Shown: positions 1-42,479 of the stretch, piece after piece | How positions within the stretch are numbered: position 1 is the first letter of the stretch | How the letters are laid out: every line of letters starts with the position of its first letter | DNA from: Elusimicrobia bacterium GWA2_56_46 | Lineage (GTDB): Bacteria > Elusimicrobiota > Elusimicrobia > Elusimicrobiales > UBA9959 | Length of the DNA: 64,000 nt | Assembly (NCBI GenBank): GCA_001799575.1 | Contig: MGTT01000015.1 | Coordinates: 76,801-140,800, forward strand | Reading direction: 5' to 3' | Made by a program: the position numbers and the translations under genes | Notes under the pieces: generated by a model | Told to the model about the DNA's origin: nothing | Seen by the model: only the letters and a program-made list of their open reading frames with translations | The model's database searches: none

Positions 1-1
1 C

Positions 2-4151: not shown

Positions 4152-4246
4152 GATGCTAAAACCGCGACATACAATTATACTATGAAAACCGGCGCGCTTT
4201 TTACTCCAGGGCCGCTGCGCGTCTAAATTGCTATCATATACCGGTC

Positions 4247-5272
4247 ATGGACATAAAAAAAATAGCCGCCTGGCTTGAGGAAACCGGCCAGCCTAAATTC
4301 CGCCTCAGGCAGATAACCGACGCCGTCTATAAGCGGGGCGCGGCGTCTTTTGAAGAGATCACCGCGCTTCCGGAGCCGCTCCGTAACGCGCTGAAAGAAA
4401 AATTCAGGGTACTGTCCATAGAACCGGAAACGATACTTGAATCCAGGACCGGAAACGCGGTTAAAGGTTTATTCCGTCTGAAAGACAAGCACAAGATGGA
4501 ATCCGTCCTCCTGAACCTCTTTCCCGGCAAGTGGAGCGTATGCGTCTCCACCCAGGTGGGCTGTCCCGTACAGTGCGTGTTCTGCGCGACCGGCCGCAGG
4601 GGGCTCCAGCGCAATCTCTCGCCGGACGAGATCGTTTCCCAGTACGTATTCTGGGCCAATTATCTGAAAATTTACCGCCCGGGCGAAAAGATAGGCGGCC
4701 TGGTCTACATGGGCATGGGCGAGCCGTTCCTGAATTATGAATCCACGGCTGAAAGCCTTAGGACGCTGACCGACCCCGGGTTCATCGGCCTGGGCGACAG
4801 GCATATCTCGGTTTCCACCGTAGGCCACGTCCCCGGCATAAGGCGCTTTGCCAAGGATTTCCCGCAGATCAACCTGGCCGTCTCCCTCCACGCGGTGGAG
4901 GATGAACTGAGGTCGCGGCTGGTACCTTTGAACGATAAATATCCCCTGGCCCAGATCTCGAAAGCGCTACAGGACTACATCTACGCCACCAAGCGGAAAG
5001 TTTTTATCGAATATGTAATGCTGGGAGGGGTAAACGATTCGCAGTCTGCGGCCAGGCGGCTCAGCGAATGGCTTAGAGGAGTGGCCGCGCCGAAAAGCTT
5101 CACCGTGAACCTCATCCCCTATAACTCCACCGCCCACGATTTCAAGTCTCCGGGAAAGGAGCGCGTGGAGGCTTTCTCCAGCCTGCTGCTGACCCTGAAT
5201 ATTTCCTGCACGGTCCGCAAAAGCCTGGGAGCGGACATCATAGGCGCCTGCGGCCAGCTCGCCGGCAAATGA
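4247..5272 (+). CDS. rlmN: radical-SAM 23S rRNA/tRNA adenine-C2 methyltransferase RlmN
   Basis: GCPVQCVFCATG radical-SAM cluster motif, GMGEP, C-terminal GACGQL. Confidence 0.92.
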   Translation: MDIKKIAAWLEETGQPKFRLRQITDAVYKRGAASFEEITALPEPLRNALKEKFRVLSIEPETILESRTGNAVKGLFRLKDKHKMESVLLNLFPGKWSVCVSTQVGCPVQCVFCATGRRGLQRNLSPDEIVSQYVFWANYLKIYRPGEKIGGLVYMGMGEPFLNYESTAESLRTLTDPGFIGLGDRHISVSTVGHVPGIRRFAKDFPQINLAVSLHAVEDELRSRLVPLNDKYPLAQISKALQDYIYATKRKVFIEYVMLGGVNDSQSAARRLSEWLRGVAAPKSFTVNLIPYNSTAHDFKSPGKERVEAFSSLLLTLNISCTVRKSLGADIIGACGQLAGK

Positions 5273-5294
5273 TGGCCTGGGCCTAAATTGGGCC

Positions 5295-5323
5295 TTGACA
5301 AGTCAAGGTGAGTGTGCTACACT
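5295..5323 (+). promoter_or_regulatory. near-consensus sigma70-type promoter with extended -10
   Basis: TTGACA (5295-5300), 17-nt spacer, TACACT (5318-5323) preceded by TG (gtgTGcTACACT); almost the same string recurs at 43869-43896. Confidence 0.55.
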
Positions 5324-5329
5324 CACTAT

Positions 5330-5608
5330 GCAGTGATGATCTCTATATCGGTTGCGTCGGTCCGGCGGCCTTTCGGCCCCGGTGTCGGTTCAGCGGGTGT
5401 TGAGCACCCCCGACGCGTGTGACCCGGTTTCGCGCCTTGCCCCCTCTAGGGCGGCGCACCCGGGCGGGTGGTTCGGCCGCCGTGTCCGCGCTTGAAGCGC
5501 GCGCCGGCCGCAGGATTCCACCCCTTACTGGCGAGCCGTGCCGCCTGGCGGCCCGGCGAGAAGACTGGTGACGAGCCCCTGCCCCGCGGCGGGGGCTCTC
5601 ACTTTTTT
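5330..5608 (+). ncRNA. ~275-nt GC-rich structured RNA of unknown family
   Basis: Bounded by the promoter above and an intrinsic terminator. Contains nested helices (GCGTCGG/CCGACGC, GGGTG-ttgag-CACCC, GCGCC..GGCGC, GGGTGG..CCACCC). Only a low-complexity antisense ORF overlaps it. Confidence 0.45.
5573..5608 (+). terminator. intrinsic terminator
   Basis: GAGCCCC (5573-5579) pairs with GGGGCTC (5592-5598), then T6 (5603-5608); no T-run on the opposite strand. Confidence 0.7.
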
Positions 5609-5910
5609 GGGGGAACGGGAGAGCCGCGATCCGGCTGAAAAATATCAGGAGCCCCGGCTTTAAGCGGAATAAACAGGCCATCCATCATCCGGCATGCGGC
5701 CACGACAGGGCGGATGTCCCCGCTGATGCGCGTGAATTTTATCAATTTATCCAATGGGATCATCTCCGGCCTTTCAGGATCCGCCCAGGCATACAGCACG
5801 GCCAGATCAACCCCGAGCATTTCGGCCATCGTATGGGGCAGGATGCCGGCAGGCCGGCCGAGCAGCGCCTTTCTGAAAATCAATTTAAAATTTTCCAGCC
5901 ACCTTCCCAT
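5599..5910 (-). CDS. phage 186 CII-like (Phage_CP76-type) HTH regulator
   Basis: By-eye resemblance to 186 CII: HTH (MAEMLGVDLAVLYAW), then DPERPEMIPLDKL and DIRPVVAACRMMDGLFIPL segments; start moved to MGRW behind a GAGGGGG SD. Confidence 0.55.
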   Translation of the reverse strand: MGRWLENFKLIFRKALLGRPAGILPHTMAEMLGVDLAVLYAWADPERPEMIPLDKLIKFTRISGDIRPVVAACRMMDGLFIPLKAGAPDIFQPDRGSPVPPKK

Positions 5911-6178
5911 AATACCCCCTCGCCGCACTTGTTTTGTCTTCCTTTTGTGAATATAATATTGTACCGGCTGAAAACGGGGGTGGGAGAACGCCCAGGTCAG
6001 GAAGGAACGCCCTCCCACCCGCAAACATAAAGCAAAGCAGAGAGATCTGCCGCGCGGCCTGATTGGCGTGTTGAATTTCCCCGGGAGTATTCCTTCCTTA
6101 CGGCATTGTTTAATATAGTTTAAACAAATTCGCGCAAGTTGTCAAGGGTTTTTTCACCCATGATTTACGGATCTCCTT

Positions 6179-6745
6179 ATGGTATTAAAGGAACTGCTGG
6201 CAAGATGGAATAAGGGTATTTTGCGGGGCGCTCAGAGAAAGTTCGCCGCCGCGATAGGCGTCAAAGAGGCTACTGTCTCGCACTGGGCCAAAGGCGATTT
6301 CACTCCGGACGAAAATCTGCGCGCGAAAATAGCCTCCGAACTGGGCGTCACCCCGGAAGAACTGATGCGGTGTTTTAAATCTAAAAACCGGCACTCGTAT
6401 TCCGGGGAGGCCGGGGCCGAATGGCGCGCGCAAAACCAGAGCATTCCGGTCATCGGCGCGATAACAGGCGGGGCATTCAGTTTCCGGCCGGACGCGACCC
6501 CGGAAGAAATGTTGCCGCTGGCATACAACACCGCGCAGAAAGTGATAGCTTTAAAAATAACCGGAGAAACCCTCATCCCGGCCGCCAAAGGCATGGACTA
6601 CGCGGTTATAAGCATGCAGAACTACGCTGAAAGCGGACAGCTGGCGCTTACGCCTAAAGACGGGAAGCACATATTGAAATACCTTTCCAAAAAAGACGCC
6701 GCGGAGATCATCGGCGTAGTCAGATATTTCTTCAAAAAACCCTGA
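6179..6745 (+). CDS. CI/LexA-like repressor: XRE-type HTH plus S24 peptidase-like C-terminal domain (catalytic Ser apparently replaced)
   Basis: N-terminal HTH (QRKFAAAIGVKEATVSHWAKG); C-terminal LKITGETLIP...ILKYL aligns by eye with the GxSM...KRL pattern of LexA/CI. Confidence 0.7.
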   Translation: MVLKELLARWNKGILRGAQRKFAAAIGVKEATVSHWAKGDFTPDENLRAKIASELGVTPEELMRCFKSKNRHSYSGEAGAEWRAQNQSIPVIGAITGGAFSFRPDATPEEMLPLAYNTAQKVIALKITGETLIPAAKGMDYAVISMQNYAESGQLALTPKDGKHILKYLSKKDAAEIIGVVRYFFKKP

Positions 6746-11947: not shown

Positions 11948-12230
11948 TTAACCTGAATCCCGCAGTTGGAAGCGGTTTCCATAGGAAAATCAGGCGGACA
12001 GAATTATTCTGCAGGATTTGTCCACTAAATTGTATCCCTGGGTGGCGCAAAAGTGCGGCAAAGTCCACCCGCCCGCGAAGCAGGCGTCGCGCCCAGCGCT
12101 ATGCGCGCCCGGCCCGACGAGGTGGCCGCCTGAAGCGCACAGCGCCCGATACGGCACCGCCACAGGCTTGTGCCTCCCGGAGGGCGCCCGCTATGCGGGC
12201 GGAAAACTTCAACTGAAGTTTTCAGGTTAA
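11948..12230. repeat. MITE-like structured repeat, long copy (283 bp)
   Basis: TTAACCTGAA...TTCAGGTTAA terminal inverted repeats; shares both ends and a middle block with 13939-14125; two extra blocks of ~50 bp. Confidence 0.65.
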
Positions 12231-12332
12231 ATTCCTACATATGTGCCGCGCCGGGAGGGGGGGGGAACAAAAAAGAGCCAGGCTGAACGCCTGGCTCTTT
12301 TGATATCGCTCAACCAAAGAATATAAAAAACG

Positions 12333-13202: not shown

Positions 13203-13304
13203 ACACAAGGATTATACCGTATCCGGGAGGGAAAACTCAACCGCACCAAATCCTCCGATAAGCGTCAACCCCTGCGACCGATCGCTTCCGCAATGTCCTG
13301 TATG

Positions 13305-13454
13305 GGAAAGATGGCGGCGGGGCATAACTGGAGGGGTGCCAGCCATGGGTCGGATCGGGGCGAGGGGAACCGGCGCGAAGTCGCCGGGCCCCGCAGGCCC
13401 GATGGGCCCCATGGCTGGCAGGCCCCCGCACTTGCAGCCCGCCGCCATTTTTCC
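13305..13454 (-). repeat. long imperfect hairpin repeat, copy X (150 nt)
   Basis: GGAAAGATGGCGGCGGGG pairs with CCCGCCGCCATTTTTCC. Inner pairs include CCAGCCATGGG with CCCATGGCTGG and ATCGGG with CCCGAT. Homologous in reverse orientation to 19500-19720. Confidence 0.6.
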
Positions 13455-13485
13455 AATATGGGGGACAGTTCCGCCCCAGGGCTAC

Positions 13486-13938: not shown

Positions 13939-14125
13939 TTAACCTGAATCCTGCAGTTGGAAGCGGTTTCCATAGGAAAATCAGGCGGACAGAATTATTC
14001 TGCAGGATTCCCCGCGAAGCGGGCGGCGGGCCCAGCGCTATGCGCGCCTGGCCCGACGAGGTGTATGCCTCCCGGAGGGCGCCCGCTATGCGGGCGGAAA
14101 ACTTCAACTGAAGTTTTCAGGTTAA
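13939..14125. repeat. MITE-like structured repeat, short copy (187 bp)
   Basis: Same 10-bp terminal inverted repeats and internal hairpins (GAATCCTGCAG/CTGCAGGATTC, GCCCGC-tat-GCGGGC, GAAAACTTCA/TGAAGTTTTC) as 11948-12230. Confidence 0.65.
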
Positions 14126-14243
14126 AGACACTCAACTTTCAGCCAAAAACCAACAAAACGGAGCGGGGGAGGCTGAGGCTAGGGGAAAGAGCCCTCGCCC
14201 CTTAATTATAAGGAATAAAATTTATATACTATAATCTGACCTT

Positions 14244-18292: not shown

Positions 18293-19350
18293 CTGAATTT
18301 ATTCTTAGCGCGGTTTTGCGCGTTAAAGCCGGTCTTTTCCAGATACTTCAGGATCGCCCTTACCAGGAATGGCCCTTCGTAAATAAGGCCGGAATAGACC
18401 TGTACCAGATCCGCGCCTAGGCGGAGCTTCTCGGCGGCTGACGGCCCGTCGAAAATCCCGCCGGCGCCGATCAGCGGCGCCCGCCCAGCCGCCAGCGCGG
18501 AAACTTTTTCAAGCATCTCGTTCGCGATCCCGCGCAGCGGCCGTCCGCTGAGTCCTCCCTCGTAGGAATGCCACCGCGCCGGGAGATGCCCGCGCCTGAC
18601 CGTGGTGTTGGCTACGATAAGCCCCAGGCCGCGCTCCACGGCGCTGCTTACCAGATCTTTAAGCTCAGCGTCTTCCAGTTCCGGGGAGATCTTCACGAAA
18701 ACGGGTTTTTTTGCCGCCTGGCCGCTTACAAAATCCATAACCGGATCCAGCAGCCGCGCCAGGCGTTCTTTCTGGTGCAGCGCGCGCAGCTGTAAAGTGT
18801 TGGGGGAACTGATGTTCAGCGTGAAATAATCGCCGAAAGGATAGAGAACTTTGAGCGCCTCAACGTAGTTCTTCGGCGCGTCTTCCAGCGAACAGTCGGC
18901 GTTTTTGCCGATATTCAGCCCCAGCGGCACGCCGGCGGGCCCCAGCCGCTCAAGTCTGCGGGCGGCTTCGTAGGCGCCGACATTATTAAAACCCATGCGG
19001 TTTATGATGCCCTGGTGCTCTCCCAGGCGGAAGACCCGCGGCCGGGGGTTGCCGTTCTGGGCGCGCAGGGTCAAGGTGCCCAATTCCAGAAAACCGAATC
19101 CCAGTCTGGCCAGAATATGCGGCGCCTCGCAGTTCTTGTCGAAACCCGCCGCTAGTCCCACCGGATTTCTGAACCGGATACCGGCCACAGTAACAGGGAT
19201 TTCCGTAGCTCTGGCCATCAGCTCTATGATCAGTTGCGCCGGCCCGATACTCTGCAGGGTTCTGGCGCTTTTAATAACGGCGTCATGAACCGTTTCCGGG
19301 TCGAAAGTAAAAAGTATTTTGCGCAAGATCTGTCTGTATAAGAAGCCCAT
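18289..19350 (-). CDS. pyrD: dihydroorotate dehydrogenase (class 2, quinone type)
   Basis: N-terminal membrane-association helix, GFDKN, LNISSPNT, GGI motifs. Confidence 0.9.
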   Translation of the reverse strand: MGFLYRQILRKILFTFDPETVHDAVIKSARTLQSIGPAQLIIELMARATEIPVTVAGIRFRNPVGLAAGFDKNCEAPHILARLGFGFLELGTLTLRAQNGNPRPRVFRLGEHQGIINRMGFNNVGAYEAARRLERLGPAGVPLGLNIGKNADCSLEDAPKNYVEALKVLYPFGDYFTLNISSPNTLQLRALHQKERLARLLDPVMDFVSGQAAKKPVFVKISPELEDAELKDLVSSAVERGLGLIVANTTVRRGHLPARWHSYEGGLSGRPLRGIANEMLEKVSALAAGRAPLIGAGGIFDGPSAAEKLRLGADLVQVYSGLIYEGPFLVRAILKYLEKTGFNAQNRAKNKFR

Positions 19351-19499
19351 AGAGATTGCCTGATAAGAGACCAGTTAGGTTAAGCTCCGGTTAATTTTAC
19401 CTTTAAATACCGGCATTAGGAAACAGACATTATCTCCCCTAATCCTCCGCTAACAGGCCTGCGTCATTGATGAGAAGATTTCACCCATTGGGTGAAAGT

Positions 19500-19720
19500 G
19501 GAAAATGACGGCGGACTGCAAGTTCGGGATGGCCGTTGCGGCCAGGTCTGCGTCCTGTCAGCCATGGGGCCCATCGGGCCGGAAGGGGCCCGGCGACTGA
19601 CCTATGGGCGTGCCGCAACAGGGCCTATGGCCAACAGGCGGCCTTCGCGCCGGTTCCCCTTTCGGCCCGATCCAACCCATGGCTGCCACCCCTCCAGGTA
19701 TACCCCGCCGCCATCCTTCC
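19500..19720 (+). repeat. long imperfect hairpin repeat, copy Y (221 nt)
   Basis: Same arms as copy X in reverse orientation, plus extra apical and lateral insertions; the frame is not conserved between copies. Confidence 0.6.
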
Positions 19721-20131
19721 AACACAACCTTAAAAACAAACCTCTATTTTGTCCGCGAGGCACCCAAACTGCAAGATGGGTACCGAATGAAGAAATAATG
19801 ATTTTAAGGGGGGCCACGGACGGCGGGGGAAGCACCGGTGGTTTTATAAAATTTACTGTTCCCTATACCGGGCGGGTAATTCAAGTAGTAATTTGGGCGG
19901 GGTCAATATATTGTATTTTCAGATTGGAATGCCGAGCGACCATCAAGTGTGTAAATTTTACTAAGGGGTGCCGATGGACAGCCTTTTTGTCCCGCAGGCC
20001 GCCGAGTGGACTACACTGCCGTTAAGTTTTGCTACGGACACTGGGCTCGTGAAGCACAAAGGCTGTCCATCGGCAGGCCCCCGGTTTTACTATCCTGCGG
20101 TTCGTTAACCCAAAGCCGATAGGATTACCGC

Positions 20132-21424
20132 TTATCGGAGGATTTGGGATCTCCTGAAAACGAAACGCCCGGCGACCATCGTCGCGGCGGCGCGGCCTTT
20201 AAGACGCCGGCCTATAAAGGGGGAATTAGCGGATCTGGAATAAAAACGCGGCCCCACCCGGTATTCGACGAACGGCTCTATCAGCGTAAGATCCGCGTCC
20301 ATCCCCGGCGCCAGCCCTCCCTTTTTCTTCAAGCCCAGGATCCGGGCCGGGTTGGCGCTCATAAGTTCCGCCAGCCGCAGCCTGGAGATAACGCCCTTAT
20401 GCACCAGTTCGGTGAGCGCCAGCCCCAGCATTGTCTCAAGACCTGTTACGCCAAAGGGCGCCTTTATCATACCTTTGGTTTTCTCGGCGGCCGGATGCGG
20501 CGCGTGATCCGAAGCTATAACGTCTATAGTCCCGTCCGCCAGCCCTTTTATGAGGGCCGCGCGGTCGTCCCGCTCCCGCAGAGGCGGTTTCATTTTAAAA
20601 GCGGCGTTTCGGACGTCTTCGCAGGTCAGAGTGAAATAATGGGGACAGGTCTCGGCCGTTACCCTGATACCTCTCCTCCTGGCGGCGGCGGCCAGTTCGA
20701 CGCTTTCAAGACAGCTCAGGTGCTGGAGATGGAGCGGCCCGCCGGTCGCGCCGGCGAGCAGCAGGTCGCGCAGCACCATATATGTTTCCGCTTCCCTCGG
20801 GATGCCGGGGACGCCAAGCCGGCGCGCCCGCGCGCATTCGTGCATCACTCCGGGGCCGGTCAAATGCGAAGCTTCCGCGTGCTCCAGCACCGGAGTTTTC
20901 AGTTTTTTAGCCAGCCTGAGAGCTTTCGTGAGAAGTTTAGAATTCTCCACACAGGCTCCATCGTCGGTGAAAGCGAGCGCGCCCGCCGCTTTAAGGGCTT
21001 TGAGGCCGGCCAGTTCCCGGCCGGCGCGGCCGCGGGTGACAGCGGCGGAAAAATAAATATTCACCGGCAGGGCGGCGGCCTTCTCCGAGAGCCGCCGGAG
21101 AAGCGCGGGGCTGTCGGCCGGGGGCTCGGTATTGGGCATGGCCAGAATGGAGGTGATCCCGCCGGCGGCGGCCGCGCGGGCCGCGCTTGCCAGGTTTTCG
21201 GCCCGCTCCATACCCGGCTCGCGGGTATGGACATGCATATCTATCAGCCCGGGCATGAGCCAGAGTCCGGAAGCGTCAAAGAGCTCAAAACTTCCGCGGG
21301 CCGTTCCCGGAAAGCCGGGCCCCAGGGACTTTATGCGGCCGTCCTCGATGAACAGGTTCAGTTTTTTTTCGAGTTTGCGCGCGGGGTCTATCACCAGCGC
21401 GTTTTGAATAAGAAGTCTCGGCAT
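20132..21424 (-). CDS. pyrC: dihydroorotase
   Basis: GLIDMHVHTREPG metal-binding motif, amidohydrolase fold signatures. Confidence 0.9.
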   Translation of the reverse strand: MPRLLIQNALVIDPARKLEKKLNLFIEDGRIKSLGPGFPGTARGSFELFDASGLWLMPGLIDMHVHTREPGMERAENLASAARAAAAGGITSILAMPNTEPPADSPALLRRLSEKAAALPVNIYFSAAVTRGRAGRELAGLKALKAAGALAFTDDGACVENSKLLTKALRLAKKLKTPVLEHAEASHLTGPGVMHECARARRLGVPGIPREAETYMVLRDLLLAGATGGPLHLQHLSCLESVELAAAARRRGIRVTAETCPHYFTLTCEDVRNAAFKMKPPLRERDDRAALIKGLADGTIDVIASDHAPHPAAEKTKGMIKAPFGVTGLETMLGLALTELVHKGVISRLRLAELMSANPARILGLKKKGGLAPGMDADLTLIEPFVEYRVGPRFYSRSANSPFIGRRLKGRAAATMVAGRFVFRRSQILR

Positions 21425-21823: not shown

Positions 21824-22372
21824 TCAGCGGCCGTTAAAAGACGAGATTTCCTCCAGCGTTTTTCTCTTGCGGGGCGGCGGAGCTTCGTCGGCGTAACCCA
21901 CACTCAACATGATCTCTACTTTGAGACCGGCGGGCAGGCCCAGGGCTTTAGCGGCGCCTTTGGCGTCAAACCAGCCTAGCCAGCAGGTACCGAGCCCCTG
22001 CTCTTCGGCGGCCAGGACGAAATGCTCGGCGGCGATGCCGATATCTATCAGGCGGAAATTTGTGTCCCGCACCTGGTTGCCCAGCCAGGCGGTGAGTTTA
22101 CCTTTTTGGGAAACTACCGCCACGAGGGCTCCGGCCCGGGCGGCGAATCCGGTGGAGGAATAAAGGCCCGAAAAAGCGGCGGCGGCCAGCTTTTCTTTTA
22201 AGTCGGGGGCGTCCACGACTATGAATTTATAGGGCTGGGCGTTGCAGGCCGAAGGGGCCAGGCGCGCGGCCTCCAGGCAGGCGAGAAGTTTTTCTCTTTC
22301 CACGGGCACGGGGTTATATTTGCGCACGCTGCGCCGCTCAGAAACAAGTTTAAAAAAATGATTCTCCCGCAT
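21824..22372 (-). CDS. nitroreductase family protein (intact copy)
   Basis: RRSVRKY...PSACNAQPY nitroreductase N-terminal motif; start at MRENHFF with TACAAT 7 nt upstream. Confidence 0.85.
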   Translation of the reverse strand: MRENHFFKLVSERRSVRKYNPVPVEREKLLACLEAARLAPSACNAQPYKFIVVDAPDLKEKLAAAAFSGLYSSTGFAARAGALVAVVSQKGKLTAWLGNQVRDTNFRLIDIGIAAEHFVLAAEEQGLGTCWLGWFDAKGAAKALGLPAGLKVEIMLSVGYADEAPPPRKRKTLEEISSFNGR

Positions 22373-22586
22373 AACTGATATTGTATAAAAAAGAACGCAG
22401 CAAACCCTCCCCAAAGAATTATCCAATGCAAGATGAGCCTGAAAGCGGGACGCTGCTTAAATGCTCAAATGGGAATAATTCAACCCGGTTTTGACGGTGG
22501 CGACTGCGAAAACTATTCCTGAAATGTGAACAGGCTTATGAACACGTGGATGCGCTGCCGCCGGGTGCCCCGTGGCTGCGGACAAT

Positions 22587-22895
22587 TTAATGGACGTGAT
22601 GCTGGGTGTGGGAGGGCTTGAATGACATTTCCAGCCCCGAAGCGCTTAATATCCCCATAAATGTTTTTAATTCTGGGTTTCCTTTTTTCGAAAGCGTCTT
22701 ATAAACACCCGCTCTTGAAAGGGAAATTTTTTTGGCCATTTTGGAGATGCCATGAGCCCTGACTACCTGGGCTAACACGGCAAGCATAAGCGCCGGATCA
22801 TTTTCTTCTACGGCGGCATTCATATACAGCGCGGCTTCTTTGGGATCTTTAAGCGCTTTATTTAAATAGTCGTCATGGGTTCTGTAGTTTTTCAT
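22587..22895 (-). CDS. higA: HigA-family antitoxin (addiction module antidote, XRE HTH), copy 1
   Basis: HTH ISKMAKKISLSRAGVYKTLSKKGNP; 4-nt overlap with the upstream toxin gene. Confidence 0.8.
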   Translation of the reverse strand: MKNYRTHDDYLNKALKDPKEAALYMNAAVEENDPALMLAVLAQVVRAHGISKMAKKISLSRAGVYKTLSKKGNPELKTFMGILSASGLEMSFKPSHTQHHVH

Positions 22896-23215
22896 AAATT
22901 CCTCTTATAATCGTCCCAGTACTCAATCGCCTTTTTAATATCTTTTGCCTGACTGCTTTTGTCTCCGGCGCAAAGTAAAACGATTACTTCATTGCCATGG
23001 AGCCCGATATAAACCCTGTATCCCGGACCGTAATCAATTCTGAGTTCGATAATTCCATGAGCGATCTTTTTATGGTCGCCAAAATTCCCGAGCTCCGCGC
23101 GGGTAACCCGCACTCTGATTTTGGCGGCTCCGAGGCGGTTTTTGAGCGAATCAACGTATTTGGTATACGCTTCAATTCCCGCATTTGTCTTATAGATTAT
23201 CGACTTTTTAATCAT
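22892..23215 (-). CDS. higB: RelE/ParE-superfamily toxin (addiction module killer, HigB-like gene order), copy 1
   Basis: ELRIDYGPGYRVYIGLHGNEVIVLLCAGDKSSQ motif typical of the killer-protein family; toxin-first order. Confidence 0.8.
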   Translation of the reverse strand: MIKKSIIYKTNAGIEAYTKYVDSLKNRLGAAKIRVRVTRAELGNFGDHKKIAHGIIELRIDYGPGYRVYIGLHGNEVIVLLCAGDKSSQAKDIKKAIEYWDDYKRNL

Positions 23216-23220
23216 CGATA

Positions 23221-23251
23221 ATAGTGTACACTATAGTTTACATCTAGTCAA
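23221..23251 (-). promoter_or_regulatory. higBA promoter with palindromic operator, copy 1
   Basis: Minus strand TTGACT (23251-23246), 17 nt, TACACT (23228-23223), 7 nt, ATG; a perfect 14-bp palindrome ATAGTGTACACTAT (23221-23234) covers the -10. Confidence 0.55.
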
Positions 23252-23304
23252 GGGCTATTTCACAAAAGATAAATGCCGTAAAAACAATGCTTTGGACGGA
23301 TAAG

Positions 23305-23347
23305 GTGACACACAACTTAATTCCCGCTTAATTAAGTTGTGTGTCAC
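23305..23347. other. perfect 18-bp-stem hairpin at the cassette boundary, copy 1
   Basis: GTGACACACAACTTAATT-cccgctt-AATTAAGTTGTGTGTCAC; ends 8 nt from the unit junction at 23355/23356. Confidence 0.8.
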
Positions 23348-23355
23348 TTAATCTT

Positions 23356-23483
23356 CAGGCCGAAGGGGCCAGGCGCGCGGCCTCCAGGCAGGCGAGAAGT
23401 TTTTCTCTTTCCACGGGCACGGGGTTATATTTGCGCACGCTGCGCCGCTCAGAAACAAGTTTAAAAAAATGATTCTCCCGCAT
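23356..23483 (-). pseudogene. displaced 5' fragment of the nitroreductase gene (codons 1-42, then TGA at the junction)
   Basis: Identical to 22245-22372; the junction changes the Cys43 codon TGC to TGA. Confidence 0.85.
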
Positions 23484-23697
23484 AACTGATATTGTATAAA
23501 AAAGAACGCAGCAAACCCTCCCCAAAGAATTATCCAATGCAAGATGAGCCTGAAAGCGGGACGCTGCTTAAATGCTCAAATGGGAATAATTCAACCCGGT
23601 TTTGACGGTGGCGACTGCGAAAACTATTCCTGAAATGTGAACAGGCTTATGAACACGTGGATGCGCTGCCGCCGGGTGCCCCGTGGCTGCGGACAAT

Positions 23698-24006
23698 TTA
23701 ATGGACGTGATGCTGGGTGTGGGAGGGCTTGAATGACATTTCCAGCCCCGAAGCGCTTAATATCCCCATAAATGTTTTTAATTCTGGGTTTCCTTTTTTC
23801 GAAAGCGTCTTATAAACACCCGCTCTTGAAAGGGAAATTTTTTTGGCCATTTTGGAGATGCCATGAGCCCTGACTACCTGGGCTAACACGGCAAGCATAA
23901 GCGCCGGATCATTTTCTTCTACGGCGGCATTCATATACAGCGCGGCTTCTTTGGGATCTTTAAGCGCTTTATTTAAATAGTCGTCATGGGTTCTGTAGTT
24001 TTTCAT
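23698..24006 (-). CDS. higA: HigA-family antitoxin, copy 2
   Basis: Protein identical to copy 1. Confidence 0.8.
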   Translation of the reverse strand: MKNYRTHDDYLNKALKDPKEAALYMNAAVEENDPALMLAVLAQVVRAHGISKMAKKISLSRAGVYKTLSKKGNPELKTFMGILSASGLEMSFKPSHTQHHVH

Positions 24007-24326
24007 AAATTCCTCTTATAATCGTCCCAGTACTCAATCGCCTTTTTAATATCTTTTGCCTGACTGCTTTTGTCTCCGGCGCAAAGTAAAACGATTACTT
24101 CATTGCCATGGAGCCCGATATAAACCCTGTATCCCGGACCGTAATCAATTCTGAGTTCGATAATTCCATGAGCGATCTTTTTATGGTCGCCAAAATTCCC
24201 GAGCTCCGCGCGGGTAACCCGCACTCTGATTTTGGCGGCTCCGAGGCGGTTTTTGAGCGAATCAACGTATTTGGTATACGCTTCAATTCCCGCATTTGTC
24301 TTATAGATTATCGACTTTTTAATCAT
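24003..24326 (-). CDS. higB: RelE/ParE-superfamily toxin, copy 2
   Basis: Protein identical to copy 1. Confidence 0.8.
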   Translation of the reverse strand: MIKKSIIYKTNAGIEAYTKYVDSLKNRLGAAKIRVRVTRAELGNFGDHKKIAHGIIELRIDYGPGYRVYIGLHGNEVIVLLCAGDKSSQAKDIKKAIEYWDDYKRNL

Positions 24327-24415
24327 CGATAATAGTGTACACTATAGTTTACATCTAGTCAAGGGCTATTTCACAAAAGATAAATGCCGTAAAAACAATG
24401 CTTTGGACGGATAAG

Positions 24416-24458
24416 GTGACACACAACTTAATTCCCGCTTAATTAAGTTGTGTGTCAC
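24416..24458. other. boundary hairpin, copy 2
   Basis: Identical to 23305-23347. Confidence 0.8.
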
Positions 24459-24466
24459 TTAATCTT

Positions 24467-24594
24467 CAGGCCGAAGGGGCCAGGCGCGCGGCCTCCAGGC
24501 AGGCGAGAAGTTTTTCTCTTTCCACGGGCACGGGGTTATATTTGCGCACGCTGCGCCGCTCAGAAACAAGTTTAAAAAAAGGAGTTTCCCTCAT
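24467..24594 (-). pseudogene. displaced, diverged 5' fragment of the nitroreductase gene (probable original chromosomal start, MRETPFF...)
   Basis: 114 bp identical to the cores, then only about 3/4 identity for ~85 nt through its own TACAAT-7-ATG promoter. Confidence 0.75.
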
Positions 24595-25203
24595 AATGAA
24601 TATTGTATAAAAAAGAAGACACCACACCCGCCATGGAAAATTATCCAACGCATGATGAGCCTGAAAACAGGGTAACATCAAGACTTCTGTGTGATTTCCC
24701 GGTGCAGGGTTCGCGGGGCCTGTCAGGGGCCCGGAACGCGGAACCGGCGTCGCGCACACCGTGCGCGCGCCTCCGTTCCTCGGCCTCCGCGCTTCGTATG
24801 CTCAGCCTCCGGACGGTTCCGCTTATCCGGCTCCCCTGCCACCCGCTCCACCGACATCGCCAGAGGGCTTATCCTTCCAAATCATCCTCCAGACGCTCTA
24901 CGGCTTCAGGCGTGATAGAACGCCATGTCCTTGCTTAGGTCTTAAACGCTTTTATTGCCAGACTATAATTCTCAGCATTATGATAAGGTTCTTCGGGGCC
25001 CGTAATTTTCAAATAAAGCCTGCGGCAGGCCCCGCGAACTTACAGCCTGCCGTTACCTCATACTATCAGAAAAGGGAGACCTAGTCACGGAATTCACGAC
25101 GGAATCACTACGAGAGATTTCAGACTCATCCTTGGATTGGAAAATGCTCTGGCATGGCGGCGGGTAGCGATTAATACTCCCTATATGATGGCGTGCTTGT
25201 GAT

Positions 25204-25236
25204 AAAAAGCCCCCGCAAACAAGCCGGGGGCTTTTT
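25204..25236. terminator. bidirectional intrinsic terminator
   Basis: AAAAAGCCCCCG-caaacaagc-CGGGGGCTTTTT, just downstream of the minus-strand gene 25281-25772. Confidence 0.7.
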
Positions 25237-25280
25237 AACATTCCCGATTTTAACTTTTACAATGACAACTTCATGTTTTA

Positions 25281-25772
25281 TTAAATGTCTAATTCACTGG
25301 TCACTGTGATGGCATTAGCGTCTTCCACAACATCCACTTTAAACCCACGCACTCTCCTTTCCTGGGCTTCCTCCAACACATCCGCGCGGGTAAACATTTT
25401 TTTAGGGAACATCTCTATCATGGTCAGTGTCCCAGCCTTTCCACCAGGAAACTTGGTGGTAAGCTCATAACCGTAATCGGTTGCCTTGTACTCCGCAAGT
25501 AAAGCCCCACTTTCCCTTCGCATATCACGTTCAACTATTACATTAACAAGGCCATAGTTCGCGGGGAATCTTTCTATTATGAACAGCGTGCCCTGATTCT
25601 TATCCGCGTCAGCGCTTTTCTTGACCTTAGCCGCGGCGGCGACTGGAAGTATGCCCGCATTCTCAAGCGTAGAAGACGGCGCCTCCAATTTGAGTTCTTT
25701 TATCGCGCTAGCCGCATAAGAATTCCCAAGAACTATTACGCCGAGAACTGCCGCAAAAAATACTTTTTTCAT
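25281..25772 (-). CDS. secreted hypothetical protein
   Basis: Signal peptide MKKVFFAAVLGVIVLGNSYAASA; AGGAGG SD upstream. Confidence 0.6.
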   Translation of the reverse strand: MKKVFFAAVLGVIVLGNSYAASAIKELKLEAPSSTLENAGILPVAAAAKVKKSADADKNQGTLFIIERFPANYGLVNVIVERDMRRESGALLAEYKATDYGYELTTKFPGGKAGTLTMIEMFPKKMFTRADVLEEAQERRVRGFKVDVVEDANAITVTSELDI

Positions 25773-26071
25773 ATTTCCCCATCCTCCTGTATATAATCTG
25801 CAAGTCCAACCTGCTCCTCTTGCAGTGCGGGCAAGTTGCCCATGCTCATCAAACTTCTACATCCACCCGATGGTTATAGTTTAATGGAAACCGTAACTTT
25901 TACCAAGGGCTGAAAGGGGCCAATTTTGCGGGTCTTTGGACCTATGAGTTGTTTTACCAACAGCGGAAGTAAAGTGCTGAGCGGATAATTTCCTGTGGGC
26001 GGGTAAATGTTTTTTTAAAAGTTTATGTATGTGCCGGGGACGTGGTCTGGAACGCTGGAGCGGGTGACGTC

Positions 26072-26256
26072 GGTTTCCCCGGCCGCCCATTTAGGGGCTT
26101 AAATCCGGCAGTCGGAGCGTATCCCTCCGGGACGGTGAGGATGTTCGAGCCCGAAAGCTTTGTCTTTCGGGCGAGTTCCGGAACCGGCGGAGACTGCCGG
26201 ATTTCTTCCCTGTAAGCCCCGATCCCGGGCGGCCGGGGAAACCGGCGGCGCCCGCG
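26072..26256 (-). ncRNA. candidate 6S-like RNA (172-nt hairpin with central bubble)
   Basis: 17-bp perfect closing stem (26072-26088 with 26227-26243). Nested stems GGGGCTTA/TAAGCCCC and CCGGCAGTC/GACTGCCGG, an asymmetric central loop, and the apical hairpin GCCCGAAAG/CTTTCGGGC. Minus-strand promoter TTGAGT-17-TAAAAT at 26291-26263. Confidence 0.35.
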
Positions 26257-26344
26257 AACCTCATTTTACCCGCAGGACACCCTAAACTCAAGCGGCTTCC
26301 GTAGAGAGCGTCTCAATTTTTTGGGGGGTTGCGAAAGTGCGGTT

Positions 26345-28105
26345 TTAGATCACGTTCGTGCGCTGGAACTTGCGGGCGATCTCTGAGGGGGAAATGTAGA
26401 AAAGCGTCGGGCGGCCGTGGGGGCAGTGGAAACTGTCTTTGGTTCCTTTCAGATCCTCTATAAGCCGCAGCGCTTCGGCGGGCTTGATGTAGTCGTGAGC
26501 CTTGACCGACTTCTTGCACGCCATCGTCGCCACCGTATTGCGCTTCAGATCCTCCGAGGCCTTTTCCGGCTCGCCCAGCACTTCCGCCAGATAGCCCAGG
26601 AACCCGCTCAGCGCCTCGGGGGTAAAATAGAACAGCGCCGGCGTGGAGTGCAGCCTGAGCGTCACAGCCCCGAACCTCTCTATCTCAAAACCCGCCTTGT
26701 CCAGCCATTCCTTCCACTTCAAAACCGTCTCGATCTGCGACCTGGGCAGTTCCACCGACACCGGCAGCATCAGCGGCTGGACCTTTATCGCGCCGCTGGA
26801 AAACTCCTCCAGGTACTTCTCGAACAGGATCCTCTCCTGCGCCGCGTGCTGGTCCATCACCAGCAGCCCTCCCCCGGACTCGAACAGAAGATAACTCTTA
26901 GCTATCTGACCCAGATAGGAAATGGGGGGCAGATACCAGTTGGGCGTTTCCCCGTTCTCACCGGAAACCGGTTCAAGGCGAAGTGTTTCCTGGCTGAACA
27001 ACTCCGGCCCCTGCTCCGGGGCTCCGCCGCATTGCGCCGCCCCCGGTTCCGCGGCCCGCGAGGCCCCGCCGGCCGCCGGCCCGCTCAAAGCCACTGAGGC
27101 CGTCTGCTTTTTCAGGATCTCGTTATAAACGGTGCTGGAAAGTTTCTTGAACACTTCGTTCTCGGAAGCGAACTTCACGTCTTTTTTCTGCGGGTGGATG
27201 TTGACGTCGAAATCCGCCGGGTTCAGGTCCAGGAACAGGACGCAGGCCGGGTGCTTGTCGCCGCGCATGGAGTCATAGCCCCGGTACAGCGCCTGCTGTA
27301 TGACGCGGGAAGCCACGGGCCGCTTGTTCACGAAGAAGTGCTGGTTGATCCGCGTAGCCGAGAGCGAATCCGGCTTCGAGATGAGGCCGTAGACGGAAAG
27401 GGCCGGGTTCCGGCCCTCTATTTTTATAAGCCCCTGGTGGATGTTTTTGCCGAAGATCACGCCGGCGCGGTCCTTCAGCGCGGCCCAGAAATCTTCTCCG
27501 CCCGGGGGCATGGAGAAGATCTCCGCCCCGTCCATATTCAGCGTGAAGCCGATGTCGAGATTAGCCAGGGCCGCTTCCTCCACGGTACGGATGAGGTGGG
27601 CGCGCTCGGACGGTTCGCTCCTCATGAACTTGGCGCGCGCCGGGGTGTTGAAAAAAAGATCGGAGACTTCCACCGTGGCGCCTTTCACCGGCGGGGTTTT
27701 GGCCTCGGAAAGCACGCGCCCGCCCTCGCCGGAAATGGAATTACCCGTTTCGGCGCCGGCCTTACAACTGGTGATCGCCAGTTTTGAAACCGCGAAAATG
27801 GAATAAAGAGCTTCGCCGCGAAAGCCGAAAGTGGCGATCTTGTCCAGGTCCTCGAAAGAGCGCAGCTTGCTGGTGGCGTGGCGGCCGACCGAAAGTTTCA
27901 GGTCCTCCAGGTCCATGCCCTTGCCGTCGTCATTCACCCGTATCAGACGCTTGCCGGCTTTTTTTATATCCACGGTTATCCGGGACGCGCCGGCGTCCAC
28001 CGCGTTCTCCAGCAACTCCTTCAGAACGGAAGCGGGGCGCTCGATAACCTCGCCCGCGGCGATCTTGGCTATCACGTCTTCCGGCAGCGTTTGGATTTCG
28101 GACAT
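26345..28105 (-). CDS. mutL: DNA mismatch repair protein MutL
   Basis: GHKL ATPase N-terminus (IAAGEVIERPASVLKELLENAVDAGA). Confidence 0.92.
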   Translation of the reverse strand: MSEIQTLPEDVIAKIAAGEVIERPASVLKELLENAVDAGASRITVDIKKAGKRLIRVNDDGKGMDLEDLKLSVGRHATSKLRSFEDLDKIATFGFRGEALYSIFAVSKLAITSCKAGAETGNSISGEGGRVLSEAKTPPVKGATVEVSDLFFNTPARAKFMRSEPSERAHLIRTVEEAALANLDIGFTLNMDGAEIFSMPPGGEDFWAALKDRAGVIFGKNIHQGLIKIEGRNPALSVYGLISKPDSLSATRINQHFFVNKRPVASRVIQQALYRGYDSMRGDKHPACVLFLDLNPADFDVNIHPQKKDVKFASENEVFKKLSSTVYNEILKKQTASVALSGPAAGGASRAAEPGAAQCGGAPEQGPELFSQETLRLEPVSGENGETPNWYLPPISYLGQIAKSYLLFESGGGLLVMDQHAAQERILFEKYLEEFSSGAIKVQPLMLPVSVELPRSQIETVLKWKEWLDKAGFEIERFGAVTLRLHSTPALFYFTPEALSGFLGYLAEVLGEPEKASEDLKRNTVATMACKKSVKAHDYIKPAEALRLIEDLKGTKDSFHCPHGRPTLFYISPSEIARKFQRTNVI

Positions 28106-42311: not shown

Positions 42312-42386
42312 GGGTGGTTAGCTCAGCGGTAGAGCGCTGTCCTCACACGACAGATGTCACAGGTTCAAATCCTGTACCACCCACCA
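42312..42386 (+). tRNA. tRNA-Val: tRNA-Val (anticodon CAC), CCA encoded
   Basis: Cloverleaf drawn by hand: acceptor GGGTGGT/ACCACCC, anticodon stem CTGTC/GACAG with loop CTCACAC, T-arm ACAGG-TTCAAAT-CCTGT. Confidence 0.9.
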
Positions 42387-42397
42387 ATTTTTATCGG

Positions 42398-42455: not shown

Positions 42456-42479
42456 CGCGCATCAAAGGAGACTTTCAAT

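Follow-up and report, generated by a model that had tools for sequence, protein, structure and literature searches.

SXT/R391 elements reportedly integrate into the 5′ end of prfC and supply the gene with a new promoter and N-terminus. These elements are 100-kb in size and possess an integrase, an excisionase and a 17-bp att core. In SXT, stability is provided by the mosAT toxin-antitoxin system (PMC2654960). The locus described here lies in a window of 64,000 nucleotides (the whole stretch of DNA that was analysed) from Elusimicrobia bacterium GWA2_56_46, and it resembles SXT/R391 in that the 5′ end of a gene is displaced, a replacement promoter and start preserve its function, and a toxin-antitoxin pair putatively discourages loss. 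However, it has no recombinase, its repeat measures 114 bp, and its ‘replacement’ promoter is of native type. Integron toxin-antitoxin cassettes share with it a ~1-kb unit that encodes only a toxin-antitoxin pair and a hairpin-forming site at the boundary. In contrast to these cassettes, neither intI nor attI occurs here, the palindrome, located upstream of the genes, is perfect and has no extrahelical bases, the units are identical instead of being different cassettes, and the palindrome family goes with Y1 transposases and not with integrases. A further likeness is found in the orphans of polymorphic toxin loci, where incoming DNA recombines via a conserved segment and a truncated displaced copy remains beside the working gene; CDI/Rhs orphans are likewise displaced modules. 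Orphan modules left by displacement are also documented in T6SS effector/immunity arrays (PMC5361080). In such loci, displacement affects the variable 3′ ends, which accumulate downstream, whereas here the 5′ end and promoter were displaced, upstream of a housekeeping-type operon.

Two rearrangement processes are also close. Tandem duplications by unequal crossing-over between short direct repeats have reportedly been found with REP sequences at their join points. Homology-facilitated illegitimate recombination has reportedly been described as well and, as in Campbell-type insertion, a homologous and an illegitimate event together produce an insertion bordered by a second, partial copy of the anchoring gene. 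Our locus shares this outcome but differs by a 100% identical core next to homologous DNA of only ~75% identity, and by parents and an intermediate that we infer. With unequal crossing-over, it shares identical units and a join point formed by a pre-existing 114-bp direct repeat, and with the REP-associated cases a REP-like palindrome at a putatively older illegitimate junction; unlike these cases, the duplication has been seen in a single metagenome assembly. Homology-facilitated illegitimate recombination is the subject of PMC3240628, and merodiploids formed by transformation are covered by PMC3784515.

Repeat architecture and unit number

All genes and ORFs of the repeat region (22245-24667) lie on the minus strand, and the features of the locus are as follows.

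21824-22372, minus strand: intact nitroreductase gene nfn, 182 aa, MRENHFF start (PF00881, E=3.9e-32)
22245-22358, minus strand: core copy 1, 114 bp, within the intact gene (junction type ‘N-core-gene’)
22359-22444, minus strand: N-type nfn 5′ region copy 1, with start codons and conserved promoter box (22378-22395)
22587-22895, minus strand: higA-type antitoxin gene copy 1 (PF21716, 59 bits; TIGR02684, 68.3 bits)
22892-23215, minus strand: higB/RelE-ParE-type toxin gene copy 1 (TIGR02683, 114.6 bits)
23221-23251, minus strand: toxin-antitoxin promoter TTGACT-17-TACACT copy 1, with 14-bp palindrome (23221-23234)
23299-23353, no strand: REPIN-like palindromic doublet copy 1, with GTGACACACAACTTAATT in both arms
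23355-23483, minus strand: 42-codon N-type nfn fragment ending in TGA, including core copy 2 (23356-23469)
23484-23555, minus strand: N-type nfn promoter region copy 2, box at 23489-23506
23698-24006, minus strand: higA-type antitoxin gene copy 2, identical to copy 1
24003-24326, minus strand: higB-type toxin gene copy 2, identical to copy 1
24332-24362, minus strand: toxin-antitoxin promoter and palindrome copy 2
24410-24464, no strand: REPIN-like palindromic doublet copy 2
24466-24594, minus strand: orphan T-type nfn fragment, MRETPFF start, 42 codons, ending in TGA, including core copy 3 (24467-24580)
24595-24667, minus strand: orphan T-type nfn promoter region, box at 24600-24617
24671-24860, plus strand: G+C-rich intergenic repeat ‘X’, bordering the orphan promoter
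25281-25772, minus strand: gene of a 163-aa protein of no known family, N-terminus signal-peptide-like

Self-comparison of the sequence demonstrated that 22245-23355 and 23356-24466 (1111 bp each) are identical base for base, that identity at offset 1111 spans 22245-23469, and that the 114-bp core, exactly identical at offsets 1111 and 2222, starts at 22245, 23356 and 24467. Past the third core, ~85 nt display about three-quarters identity to the N-type copy, including an exact 18-mer (22378-22395 = 24600-24617), before the sequences become unrelated (homology end at 24666/24667). The original prediction of two identical 1111-bp units, followed by a third core and an orphan MRETPFF start and promoter, thus agrees with the base-for-base check. 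It had placed the core at about codons 5-42 of the nitroreductase gene with unit-specific codons 1-4, which is roughly correct, although the exact limits are base 3 of codon 5 and base 2 of codon 43; the MRENHFF and MRETPFF starts differ at the DNA level in codons 2-5. The change of the cysteine codon TGC of the intact gene to TGA, said to end the displaced 5′ fragments, was recovered in both translations (MRENHFF...APSA-stop for 23355-23483 and MRETPFF...APSA-stop for 24466-24594), and the orphan is annotated as a 42-aa PF00881 ORF in several contigs. The G+C content of the unit is ~41-48%, compared to ~60% in the flanks.

Nine further assemblies from this Rifle groundwater population of Elusimicrobia GWA2_56_46, L001-L009, each contain one unit. 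They comprise IDBA-UD scaffolds, MEGAHIT k127/k141 contigs, JGI contigs and UBA genomes (L011-L013 and L018 are overlapping fetches of the same contigs), and between 26145 and 21460 none of them deviates from the window at more than one base. Their junctions are T-core-hairpin and N-core-gene only, and the unit-unit junction occurs in this assembly only. The single-unit arrangement is not a chimera, since the k141 contig L008 crosses both cores. There is close to an even chance that the genome holds one unit between two cores and that the assembler traversed the core-unit-core loop twice: the nine one-unit assemblies include some from the same study and pipeline (ANAN16-1 scaffolds L001, L004 and L006; GCA_001799775.1), the units are 100% identical, no ORF with a unit-unit junction product is on record in the collection of called genes, and several contigs break at or near the repeat, as would be expected of a loop left unresolved (L014 stops at 24663, and L019 begins within the core). 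However, short-read assemblers normally collapse exact tandem copies, and therefore one-unit contigs elsewhere are no proof of one copy; moreover, a 997-bp unique segment emitted twice would be unusual unless the junction has read support, and direct repeats of 114 bp separated by 1 kb lend themselves well to a real RecA-mediated duplication. Such an artefact would concern copy number only and is compatible with the remainder of the explanation favoured below.

The nitroreductase gene, its promoters and a second haplotype

The nfn gene (OGR43385.1) is the first of the cluster nfn-hypothetical-pyrC-pyrD-pyrF-pyrE and has orthologues with 66-89% identity in many Elusimicrobia; in relatives, the downstream gene order is conserved and the upstream side is a synteny break. 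The intact gene is probably driven by the first N-type 5′ region (22359-22444). The promoter box TTCTTTTTTATACAATAT, with its ATG 7 nt past the -10, is conserved at two orthologue loci of other Elusimicrobia devoid of higBA (L020 and L023), and the 23 nt upstream match the sister species at 19/23 positions for the working N-type copy and at 11/23 for the orphan T-type copy. The view that the promoter and start of nfn are element-borne is thus not supported, and both promoters are the native, conserved nfn promoter, predicted to be leaderless. Within the start region, MRETPFF is closer to the orthologues (26/30) than MRENHFF (21/30), and the N and T alleles are mosaic relative to them; no intact MRETPFF-type protein is on record. 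Beyond the orphan promoter, repeat ‘X’ displays 91% identity over 57 nt to DNA that immediately follows pyrC in the sister species (L020, 3885-3941) and has related copies in the window at 13299-13455 and 19499-19726.

A second haplotype, L010, represented by one 2.2-kb contig, contains mutL, then 127 bp, then higBA-MRENHFF-nfn with 100% identity to the window over 1114 bp, and lacks the orphan, the palindrome and the 163-aa gene, the latter being located within a low-G+C island. The second palindromic doublet of the repeat lies 2 nt past the end of the orphan core and 3 nt before the identity to L010 begins. Since L010 has higBA and the MRENHFF gene directly beside mutL, the incoming DNA could equally be the orphan-bearing segment. 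A rather unlikely version of events holds that higBA-MRENHFF-nfn beside mutL is the older state and that a 1.9-kb segment ending in the MRETPFF fragment was captured from a sister strain, by a homologous crossover close to mutL and joining at the microhomology TTCGGCC, with a later insertion of the palindrome at the junction; we give this capture route the same low weight. L010 does exist, with a higBA-nfn part fully identical to the window, and its 7 nt before CCAAAGC are TTCGGCC, which is the end of the core. The better N-type match to the sister species upstream of the gene (19/23 versus 11/23), the likewise low G+C of the 163-aa gene region and the location of the doublet after the orphan stop codon, as palindrome doublets usually lie right after ORF ends, point in the same direction, and homology-facilitated illegitimate recombination is an established route (PMC3240628). 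Nevertheless, the closer relationship of MRETPFF to the orthologues (26/30 versus 21/30) argues against the capture, which would also require that the flank of the inserted palindrome happened to begin with TG, the continuation of the gene sequence. In addition, the 127 bp unique to L010 have no significant similarity to nfn, the donor haplotype was not observed, and L010 is a single short contig.

The higBA module and the palindrome

Both products of the module score above the curated cutoffs (62.85 for TIGR02683 and 53.7 for TIGR02684), as expected from the antitoxin and toxin types first proposed, and the module resembles the HigBA HI1419/HI1420 family (TIGR02683; TIGR02684/PF21716) in that the toxin gene precedes the antitoxin gene and the two overlap (by 4 nt). 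HigB stands in GenBank under two accessions two apart (OGR43387.1 and OGR43389.1) and has 197 relatives, many of them in Elusimicrobia. The -10 of the toxin-antitoxin promoter falls, in both copies and as noticed originally, inside the perfect 14-bp palindrome ATAGTGTACACTAT, as in autoregulated toxin-antitoxin operators; promoter and palindrome are invariant across five different contexts of the module, and the palindrome is the probable operator. In itself, this predicted HigBA-type pair is ordinary, with nothing unusual, and like the HI1419/HI1420 family it forms a compact ~700-bp unit found in different genomic contexts. Indeed, higBA DNA with 91-93% identity over ~670-740 bp occurs at L104, L107 and L108/L109, each time with different neighbours, and these loci contain no flanking direct repeats of at least 16 nt, no hairpin palindrome and no gene mimic. 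In the sister species, higBA is located between a sulfatase gene and an ArfB-like gene, and the syntenic site of the window (2183-2313) is empty. Judging from these comparisons, the higBA module is independently mobile and wanders horizontally.

The hairpin has 24-nt arms (92% complementary), a perfect stem of 18-20 bp and a 7-nt loop, and its folding is much stronger than that of shuffled sequence (z = -5.1 and -6.6 for the two strands). Its 18-mer was found in more than 120 metagenome contigs, with 26 exact doublets, and a second copy is present at another locus of the GWA2_56_46 genome (L145). A Y1_Tnp ORF lies beside the palindrome in 13 of 80 loci, and at L124 and L160 the Y1_Tnp gene is flanked by inverted palindrome copies, which recalls the REPtron layout. 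REP/REPIN elements are reportedly associated with RAYT (IS200-like Y1) transposases, and HUH Y1 transposases (IS200/IS605) act through circular single-stranded intermediates. As in REP/REPIN elements, the short palindromic unit forms hairpins as inverted doublets, is multi-copy (at least two loci in the GWA2_56_46 genome) and extragenic, and is usually positioned immediately behind the 3′ end of a gene: no more than ~30 nt separate 16 of 20 doublets from the 3′ end of an ORF. Unlike classical REPs, which are species-specific, the 18-mer occurs in several Elusimicrobia species and in contigs whose G+C content ranges from 34 to 66%; spacers are very short (mostly 2-7 nt), and the outer 6-8 nt vary among copies while remaining palindromic within each copy. 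The hairpin is therefore classed, on sequence grounds, as a member of a widespread REP/REPIN-like family linked to IS200-type Y1 (RAYT) transposase genes. The perfect 18-bp stem originally described stands, and its assignment to a cassette is not supported, given the widespread repeat and its second genomic copy.

These observations bear on the original prediction of a new class of integrating cassette, according to which a 1.1-kb non-autonomous circle (palindrome, higBA and an nfn promoter/5′ mimic) recurrently integrates into nfn via the core. We regard this as very improbable, as we do its extension, in which the circle replaces the nfn start, is stabilised by the toxin-antitoxin pair and is maybe mobilised in trans (e.g., by Y1/RAYT). 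In its topology, the locus corresponds exactly to a Campbell-type insertion in which the displaced start remains as an orphan, and it has the layout of a single crossover through the 114-bp core, as proposed for a circular element. Moreover, the G+C of the unit looks foreign, its boundary lies within 2 nt of a palindrome whose family is linked to HUH Y1 transposases, and a unit-unit junction, equivalent to a circle, is present in this assembly. However, a distinct integrating element is not borne out by the one-unit assemblies: outside this assembly, the predicted empty-site alleles, further insertion sites and circle junctions were not found. Close higBA relatives occur in three other contexts without mimic, palindrome or flanking repeats, the ‘mimic’ is a native-type nfn promoter region also present in the sister species, and in L010 the junction of this higBA-nfn DNA with mutL falls elsewhere on the supposed circle. 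The single-unit form has one palindrome, whereas Y1 transposition needs two structured ends. Finally, the window contains no RAYT gene or other recombinase gene (zero integrase or transposase Pfam matches in ~50 ORFs), as originally noticed.

A proposed recombination scar and the possible origin of the second unit

We somewhat favour, a little above even, a recombination scar followed by local amplification or an assembly loop over a new class of mobile element. With the same modest preference, the locus is read as chromosomal DNA forming a small variable island upstream of the probably leaderless nfn-hyp-pyrCDFE, and the island, on balance, as lying between two perfect 114-bp direct repeats and containing higBA with its own autoregulated promoter, the palindrome and a dead nfn 5′ copy. 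The palindrome lies directly upstream of higBA, and the dead copy (native-type promoter and codons 1-42) upstream of the palindrome. The scar would have arisen when nfn codon 42/43 was joined illegitimately to DNA at the base of the palindrome and a single homologous exchange took place in flanking conserved DNA, either by Campbell-type insertion of a circle or by homology-facilitated illegitimate recombination of linear DNA. The newcomer may be either the side with higBA and MRENHFF or the side with the 163-aa gene and MRETPFF. The predicted parental allele, with an intact MRETPFF gene and no higBA, was not found, so that the direction and the two-parent scenario are ones we infer. Simple divergence is insufficient for a 100% core beside ~75% in the adjoining 85 nt, which needs very similar parental coding sequences or later gene conversion.

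The second unit could result from RecA-dependent unequal crossing-over between the 114-bp repeats or from the assembler rounding the repeat loop twice; a single event followed by amplification, one of the two histories first envisaged, is a sound route to two identical units. The nfn-pyr genes would be read from the proximal native-type promoter, and the orphan would encode no more than a 42-aa peptide. If the repeats recombined to give the reciprocal deletion, higBA would be lost as a non-replicating circle, and therefore post-segregational killing, i.e., a putative toxin-antitoxin counter-selection against this deletion, may explain the fixation of the single-unit form in all samples covered. 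Both breakpoints of the rearrangement are no more than 2-3 nt away from the palindrome, where an active role of a Y1/RAYT nuclease could offer a more specific mechanism.

The tandem units and their copy number across assemblies

As originally predicted, the window holds two identical 1111-bp units (22245-23355 and 23356-24466, 100% identity), and the 114-bp core, a segment of the nitroreductase gene nfn, stands at 22245, 23356 and 24467. Past the third core, roughly three-quarters identity continues for ~85 nt, with an exact 18-mer inside, before the sequence becomes unrelated. All genes of the repeat region lie on the minus strand, and an overlapping 132-aa ORF and then pyrC are found downstream of nfn. 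The two truncated nfn fragments were also recovered as described, running from MRENHFF (the start of the working gene, hereafter N-type) and from MRETPFF (the start of the orphan fragment, hereafter T-type) to APSA and a stop. The G+C content of the unit is ~41-48% vs ~60% in the surroundings, and the folding energy of the hairpin is -29.7 kcal/mol for one strand and -37 kcal/mol for the other (z = -5.1 and -6.6, respectively). The main features are as follows:

21824-22372, minus strand: intact nitroreductase gene (nfn), PF00881
23299-23353 and 24410-24464: hairpin (palindromic doublet), with folding far above shuffled sequence

An Rfam search of 24400-26400 and 19300-20200 gave no match even at E<=1, noise apart.

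Nineteen loci of the same population, obtained by exact-protein look-ups, were typed at each core copy by its two flanks. In nine independent assemblies (i.e., original study scaffolds, a second GenBank MAG, UBA MAGs, JGI contigs, and MEGAHIT k127 and k141 re-assemblies), exactly two junctions were present, MRETPFF-core-hairpin and MRENHFF-core-gene, which correspond to one unit. The unit-unit junction MRENHFF-core-hairpin was seen in the window only, and the empty-site junction MRETPFF-core-gene (core into TGCAACGCC) in none of the 19 loci. From 26145 to 21460, the window and the same-population contigs differ by at most one base, and one k141 contig (L008) spans both cores, so the single-unit arrangement with the orphan is real. 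A chimeric assembly as the source of the orphan was rejected, since nine assemblies made with different assemblers contain the path from the T-type start through core and palindrome to higB, one of them as a k141 contig that exceeds the core in length, and since the 60-bp palindrome segment fits neither simple parental path.

The doubled form is known from one assembly. For Elusimicrobia bacterium GWA2_56_46, the Rifle groundwater MAG from which the window most likely comes, the toxin is on record under two accessions (OGR43387.1 and OGR43389.1; the nitroreductase is OGR43385.1), which, being two apart, agree with the doubled arrangement; junction ORFs of the doubled form are absent from the called genes on record, and the 90% cluster of the nitroreductase contains MRENHFF-type proteins only, with no MRETPFF-type. 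Exact tandem copies are usually collapsed by short-read assemblers, which can, however, also run through a loop two times. The two units do not differ, and their join lies inside a pre-existing direct repeat long enough for RecA, given that the single-unit allele of the nine assemblies already has two 114-bp cores. The doubling would result from (i) unequal crossing-over between cores or (ii) an assembly loop. Annotators of MAGs should check against the reads any exact tandem copies whose bounding repeat exceeds the assembly k-mer in length.

In the UBA assembly GCA_003489595.1 (L005/L013), the gene-proximal core is short of 81 nt (22254-22334), and a further 41 nt are missing at 22032-22072; both gaps probably reflect faulty assembly or scaffolding at the repeat. 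In L006-L008 (positions 1-770, vs window 26146-26293), i.e., in three contigs, the island is joined to another left neighbor than mutL, a Gly/Thr-rich protein with a tail-fibre-like look; the junction shows 22 substitutions within 150 bp beside a 29-nt inverted repeat (26060-26088 / 26227-26255) and is either a second genomic copy of the segment or a repeat-mediated misjoin. Note that a metagenome scan for the species-specific core gave no match, a result that carries no weight because JGI contigs (L003) do hold that core.

The higBA module

The toxin-antitoxin identity stated in the original prediction stands: the toxin (107 aa) fits TIGR02683 (RelE/ParE-fold, HI1419-type) at 114.6 bits vs a cutoff of 62.85, with a weak Pfam Gp49 score (21.2 against 23.9), and the antitoxin (102 aa; HTH, HI1420-type) reaches 68.3 bits with TIGR02684 (cutoff 53.7) and 59 with PF21716 (cutoff 27). 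The gene order is reversed, the antitoxin being directly downstream of the toxin with a 4-nt overlap, and the promoter TTGACT-17-TACACT has its -10 inside the palindrome ATAGTGTACACTAT, as had been noticed. By these profile scores, the pair is predicted to be a HigBA-family toxin-antitoxin module, a known kind. A scan of genome contigs with a HigB alignment gave, among the matches listed, distant relatives (<=58% identity) from many phyla and none from Elusimicrobia, and is informative just on the wide spread of the family. Viral contigs scanned for the toxin-antitoxin operator and for the palindrome gave no match.

The closest relatives of the toxin, with 88-93% amino-acid identity, were found in three other contexts:

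L104: higBA between an OPT transporter and an unrelated nitroreductase paralogue
L107: higBA adjoining an AbiEi-like gene
L108/L109: higBA between a sulfatase gene and an ArfB-like gene

At the DNA level, these copies are 91-93% identical to the window over ~670-740 bp, a match that begins shortly before the toxin-antitoxin promoter and breaks off abruptly ~25 nt beyond the antitoxin stop. The unit had been proposed to be one element, and this is not supported, since higBA in L104, L107 and L108/L109 comes without flanking direct repeats of at least 16 nt, without a hairpin copy and without a fragment of the neighboring gene. The toxin-antitoxin module moves independently. The closest nfn orthologue (89% amino-acid identity) is that of L020/L021, and as L108/L109 stem from those very samples, these loci probably belong to one sister species. 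In this species, higBA occupies the sulfatase locus; the window is empty at the syntenic site (2183-2313).

Comparing the occupied site (L108 4932-5656) with the empty one in the window (2183-2313), the entire 127-nt intergenic spacer is replaced; the L108 and window higBA sites have no shared sequence, and no target duplication was found. The linkage of a 91% identical higBA to a nitroreductase in L104 was dismissed as a coincidence, this nitroreductase being a 29%-identical paralogue in another context. The L104 copy, from another Elusimicrobiota MAG, is bracketed by 19-nt inverted repeats (4330-4348 / 5260-5278, 89% complementary), a candidate terminal repeat that is absent from L107, L108 and the window, and is followed at 5275-5324 by four tandem copies of TCCCCGGAAC.

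The palindrome family

The hairpin had been taken for a part of the cassette. However, the 18-mer GTGACACACAACTTAATT, exact in both of its arms, occurs in at least 120 metagenome contigs among the matches listed, and a second doublet is located elsewhere in the same genome. In 80 loci fetched from these matches (L111-L190), with G+C contents of 34-66%, we found 127 exact GTGACACACAACTTAATT arms and 26 exact inverted doublets, mostly with 2-7 nt spacers, together with some 107-nt MITE-like forms. The outer 6-8 nt vary among copies and remain palindromic within each copy, and sub-repeats such as AATTAAGGTGA are frequently ahead of an arm. Of 20 doublets, 16 have an ORF 3' end no more than ~30 nt away, and the genes on either side are often convergent. 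Two doublet loci were seen for GWA2_56_46, namely the window and L145 (protein OGR42817.1), whose loops are nearly identical (AAGCGGG and AAGCAGG, respectively), and further copies are present in Elusimicrobia GWA2_61_42 and CG1_02_56_21. Considering the spread of this repeat family and the position of its copies at ORF 3' ends, the 'cassette hairpin' is one more REPIN-like element, placed where such elements usually are, right after the end of an ORF (here, the truncated nfn).

In 13 of the 80 loci, an ORF similar to IS200-type Y1 transposases is directly beside GTGACACACAACTTAATT, and six tested ORFs matched PF01797 (E = 1.6e-09 to 6.9e-13). In three of these loci, the repeats are placed as follows:

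L124: repeat at 879 (plus), ORF 898-1554, repeat at 1631 (minus); inverted copies flank the Y1 gene
L160: repeats at 230 (plus) and 980 (minus); inverted copies flank the Y1 gene
L169: repeat copies on either side of the ORF, all in one orientation

L124 and L160 have the REPtron layout of REP-associated tyrosine transposases. The likeness to REP/REPIN-RAYT systems lies in the window palindrome being an inverted doublet able to form a hairpin, and in Y1 genes flanked by inverted copies; the breadth of the GTGACACACAACTTAATT family is unusual for a REP-type element. No cognate RAYT or Y1-like ORF was found within the 64-kb window, and a literature search for the palindrome sequence returned no relevant paper. 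The family is the most notable by-product of our analysis and, if its breadth is real, would be an unusually widespread REPIN-like element.

In a metagenome that also holds this population, L130 (Ga0209211_10025278, 1-6424) carries a cassette-like island in which REP-bounded 107-nt elements part an HTH/MazF-like toxin-antitoxin pair from two AAA_14/DUF4143 ATPase genes, with a degenerate Y1-like ORF at 1771-1938.

The nfn start and the origin of the arrangement

The original prediction also held that the unit brings a replacement promoter and gene start. Our alignment contradicts this: the box TTCTTTTTTATACAATAT is invariant in both window copies (22370-22396 and 24592-24617) and in the orthologue loci L020 and L023, so that box and ATG are conserved together with the distance between them, and both promoters are native. 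The nfn ATG stands 7 nt after TACAAT, and a Shine-Dalgarno sequence is absent, which together with the conserved spacing points to a probably leaderless nfn-pyr transcript. Over the 23 nt that precede the box, the sister species shares 19/23 positions with the N copy and 11/23 with the orphan T copy; over the stretch between the box and codon 7, the T copy shares 26/30 and the N copy 21/30, and the orthologue N-termini are mostly xETPF/xETNF. Given this split similarity, both alleles represent mosaics of native-type sequence. The sister species has one nfn promoter, with an AAA_14 gene upstream, and among the relatives the gene order is kept downstream of nfn and is different upstream in each, indicating that the nfn promoter borders a variable island. 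As it stands, the locus is a well-documented case, from an uncultivated phylum, of a conserved operon whose boundary has been reshaped by small accessory modules.

A G+C-rich intergenic repeat family is present at 24671-24860 (plus strand), 19499-19726 and 13299-13455, at 3885-4040 of L020 and in L145. Its core (...GGGGCCTGYCAGCCATGGGGCCCATCGGGCC...CCGATCCGACCCATGGCTGCCACCC) could form a long imperfect hairpin, and Rfam gave no match for it. The orphan promoter is bordered by one copy, and the sister-species copy is directly after pyrC.

One haplotype lacks the orphan. L010, a single short contig from another sample, runs from the mutL end through 127 unrelated bases into CCAAAGC, higBA and the MRENHFF-type nfn; from CCAAAGC to nfn, it is 100% identical to the window over 1114 bp. 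It has neither the hairpin nor the orphan, and the G+C-rich repeat and 163-aa gene are likewise missing. The L010 breakpoint lies 3 nt from the hairpin, on whose opposite side a gap of 2 nt leads to the end of the orphan core, i.e., the repeat-family palindrome is located at the breakpoint. TTCGGCC, the 7 nt that directly precede CCAAAGC in L010, equals the end of the core and may represent a microhomology. The rest of the L010-unique 127 bp has no significant similarity to nfn or the orphan; the sole significant match of these bases is 25 nt, to the GTTCGCGGGGCCTG motif region at ~25017-25041.

Concerning known systems, the absence of a recombinase from the window was borne out: the ~50 ORFs are ordinary chromosomal genes (ParAB, RelA/SpoT, MutSL, pyr, efflux components), with no integrase or transposase among them. 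An integron cassette was set aside, as no integrase family occurs among the window ORFs, and so was an attC site: ACACAAC and GTTGTGT are each one base off the attC boxes (RYYYAAC / GTTRRRY), but the palindrome is perfect over 18-20 bp, has no bulged bases and sits upstream of the toxin-antitoxin promoter. By eye, the palindromic arms with their 7-nt spacer seem unlike the dif arms of an Xer/dif-like site. For an SXT-like element, an own integrase/excisionase and empty sites or circular junctions would be expected, whereas the unit encodes the toxin-antitoxin pair alone and no empty site or unit-unit junction was found outside the window in 19 related loci; the likeness to SXT at prfC, i.e., replacement of a gene 5' end, is functional only. 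Memberships in integrons and site-specific elements fail on the features tested. The components are all of known kinds, namely a HigBA module, a REP/REPIN-like palindrome, a partial gene duplication at an island boundary and a direct-repeat tandem duplication.

We propose that the partial nfn copy would derive from one illegitimate join at or beside the palindrome plus one homologous exchange, either by Campbell-type insertion or by homology-facilitated illegitimate recombination (in the sense defined in PMC3240628), and the event could have run in either direction. The weakest step is the upstream core edge, where identity falls from 100% to ~75%, for which the best account would be a near-identical parental coding sequence or a later gene conversion. 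A toxin-antitoxin pair and a REP-like palindrome between partial gene-start copies make a good substrate for amplification and deletion. As the reciprocal deletion would lose higBA, post-segregational killing may maintain the arrangement, by analogy with mosAT in SXT, for which a stabilizing role was shown (PMC2654960).

The class of integrating element first put forward found no support beyond topology, with neither an empty site nor a unit-unit junction outside the window in the 19 related loci. It seems to us very improbable that the 1,111-bp unit truly is a mobile, if non-autonomous, cassette that leaves as a circle and re-enters nfn of related strains through the 114-bp core. Such a cassette, itself very doubtful, would combine a REPIN-type palindrome, the higBA addiction module, and a copy of the nfn promoter and first 42 codons. 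Its exit, equally hard to credit, would proceed by core-core recombination or by cleavage of the palindrome by a Y1/RAYT transposase in trans, and its effect, for which we hold out as little expectation, would be to swap the nfn promoter and start and to make the unit hard to lose. The breakpoints lie close against a palindrome from a family that goes with HUH Y1 enzymes, but nothing beyond the topology speaks positively for the cassette. If true, this would mean a recombinase-free exchange of gene starts between strains.

Elsewhere in the window, two copies of a 190-280-nt element with a structured-RNA look (11948-12231 and 13939-14126; closing stem AACCTGAA...TTCAGGTT) have in common a 71-nt block (98.6% identity) and a 61-nt block (100% identity), with no Rfam match at gathering thresholds. 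The 1.7-kb segment between them contains a Band_7 gene, a copy of the G+C-rich repeat and an HTH_17 (excisionase-like) gene, and may be a small integrated island. At 42312-42458, a tRNA-Val(CAC) is directly followed by a fluoride riboswitch (RF01734, 58.8 bits).
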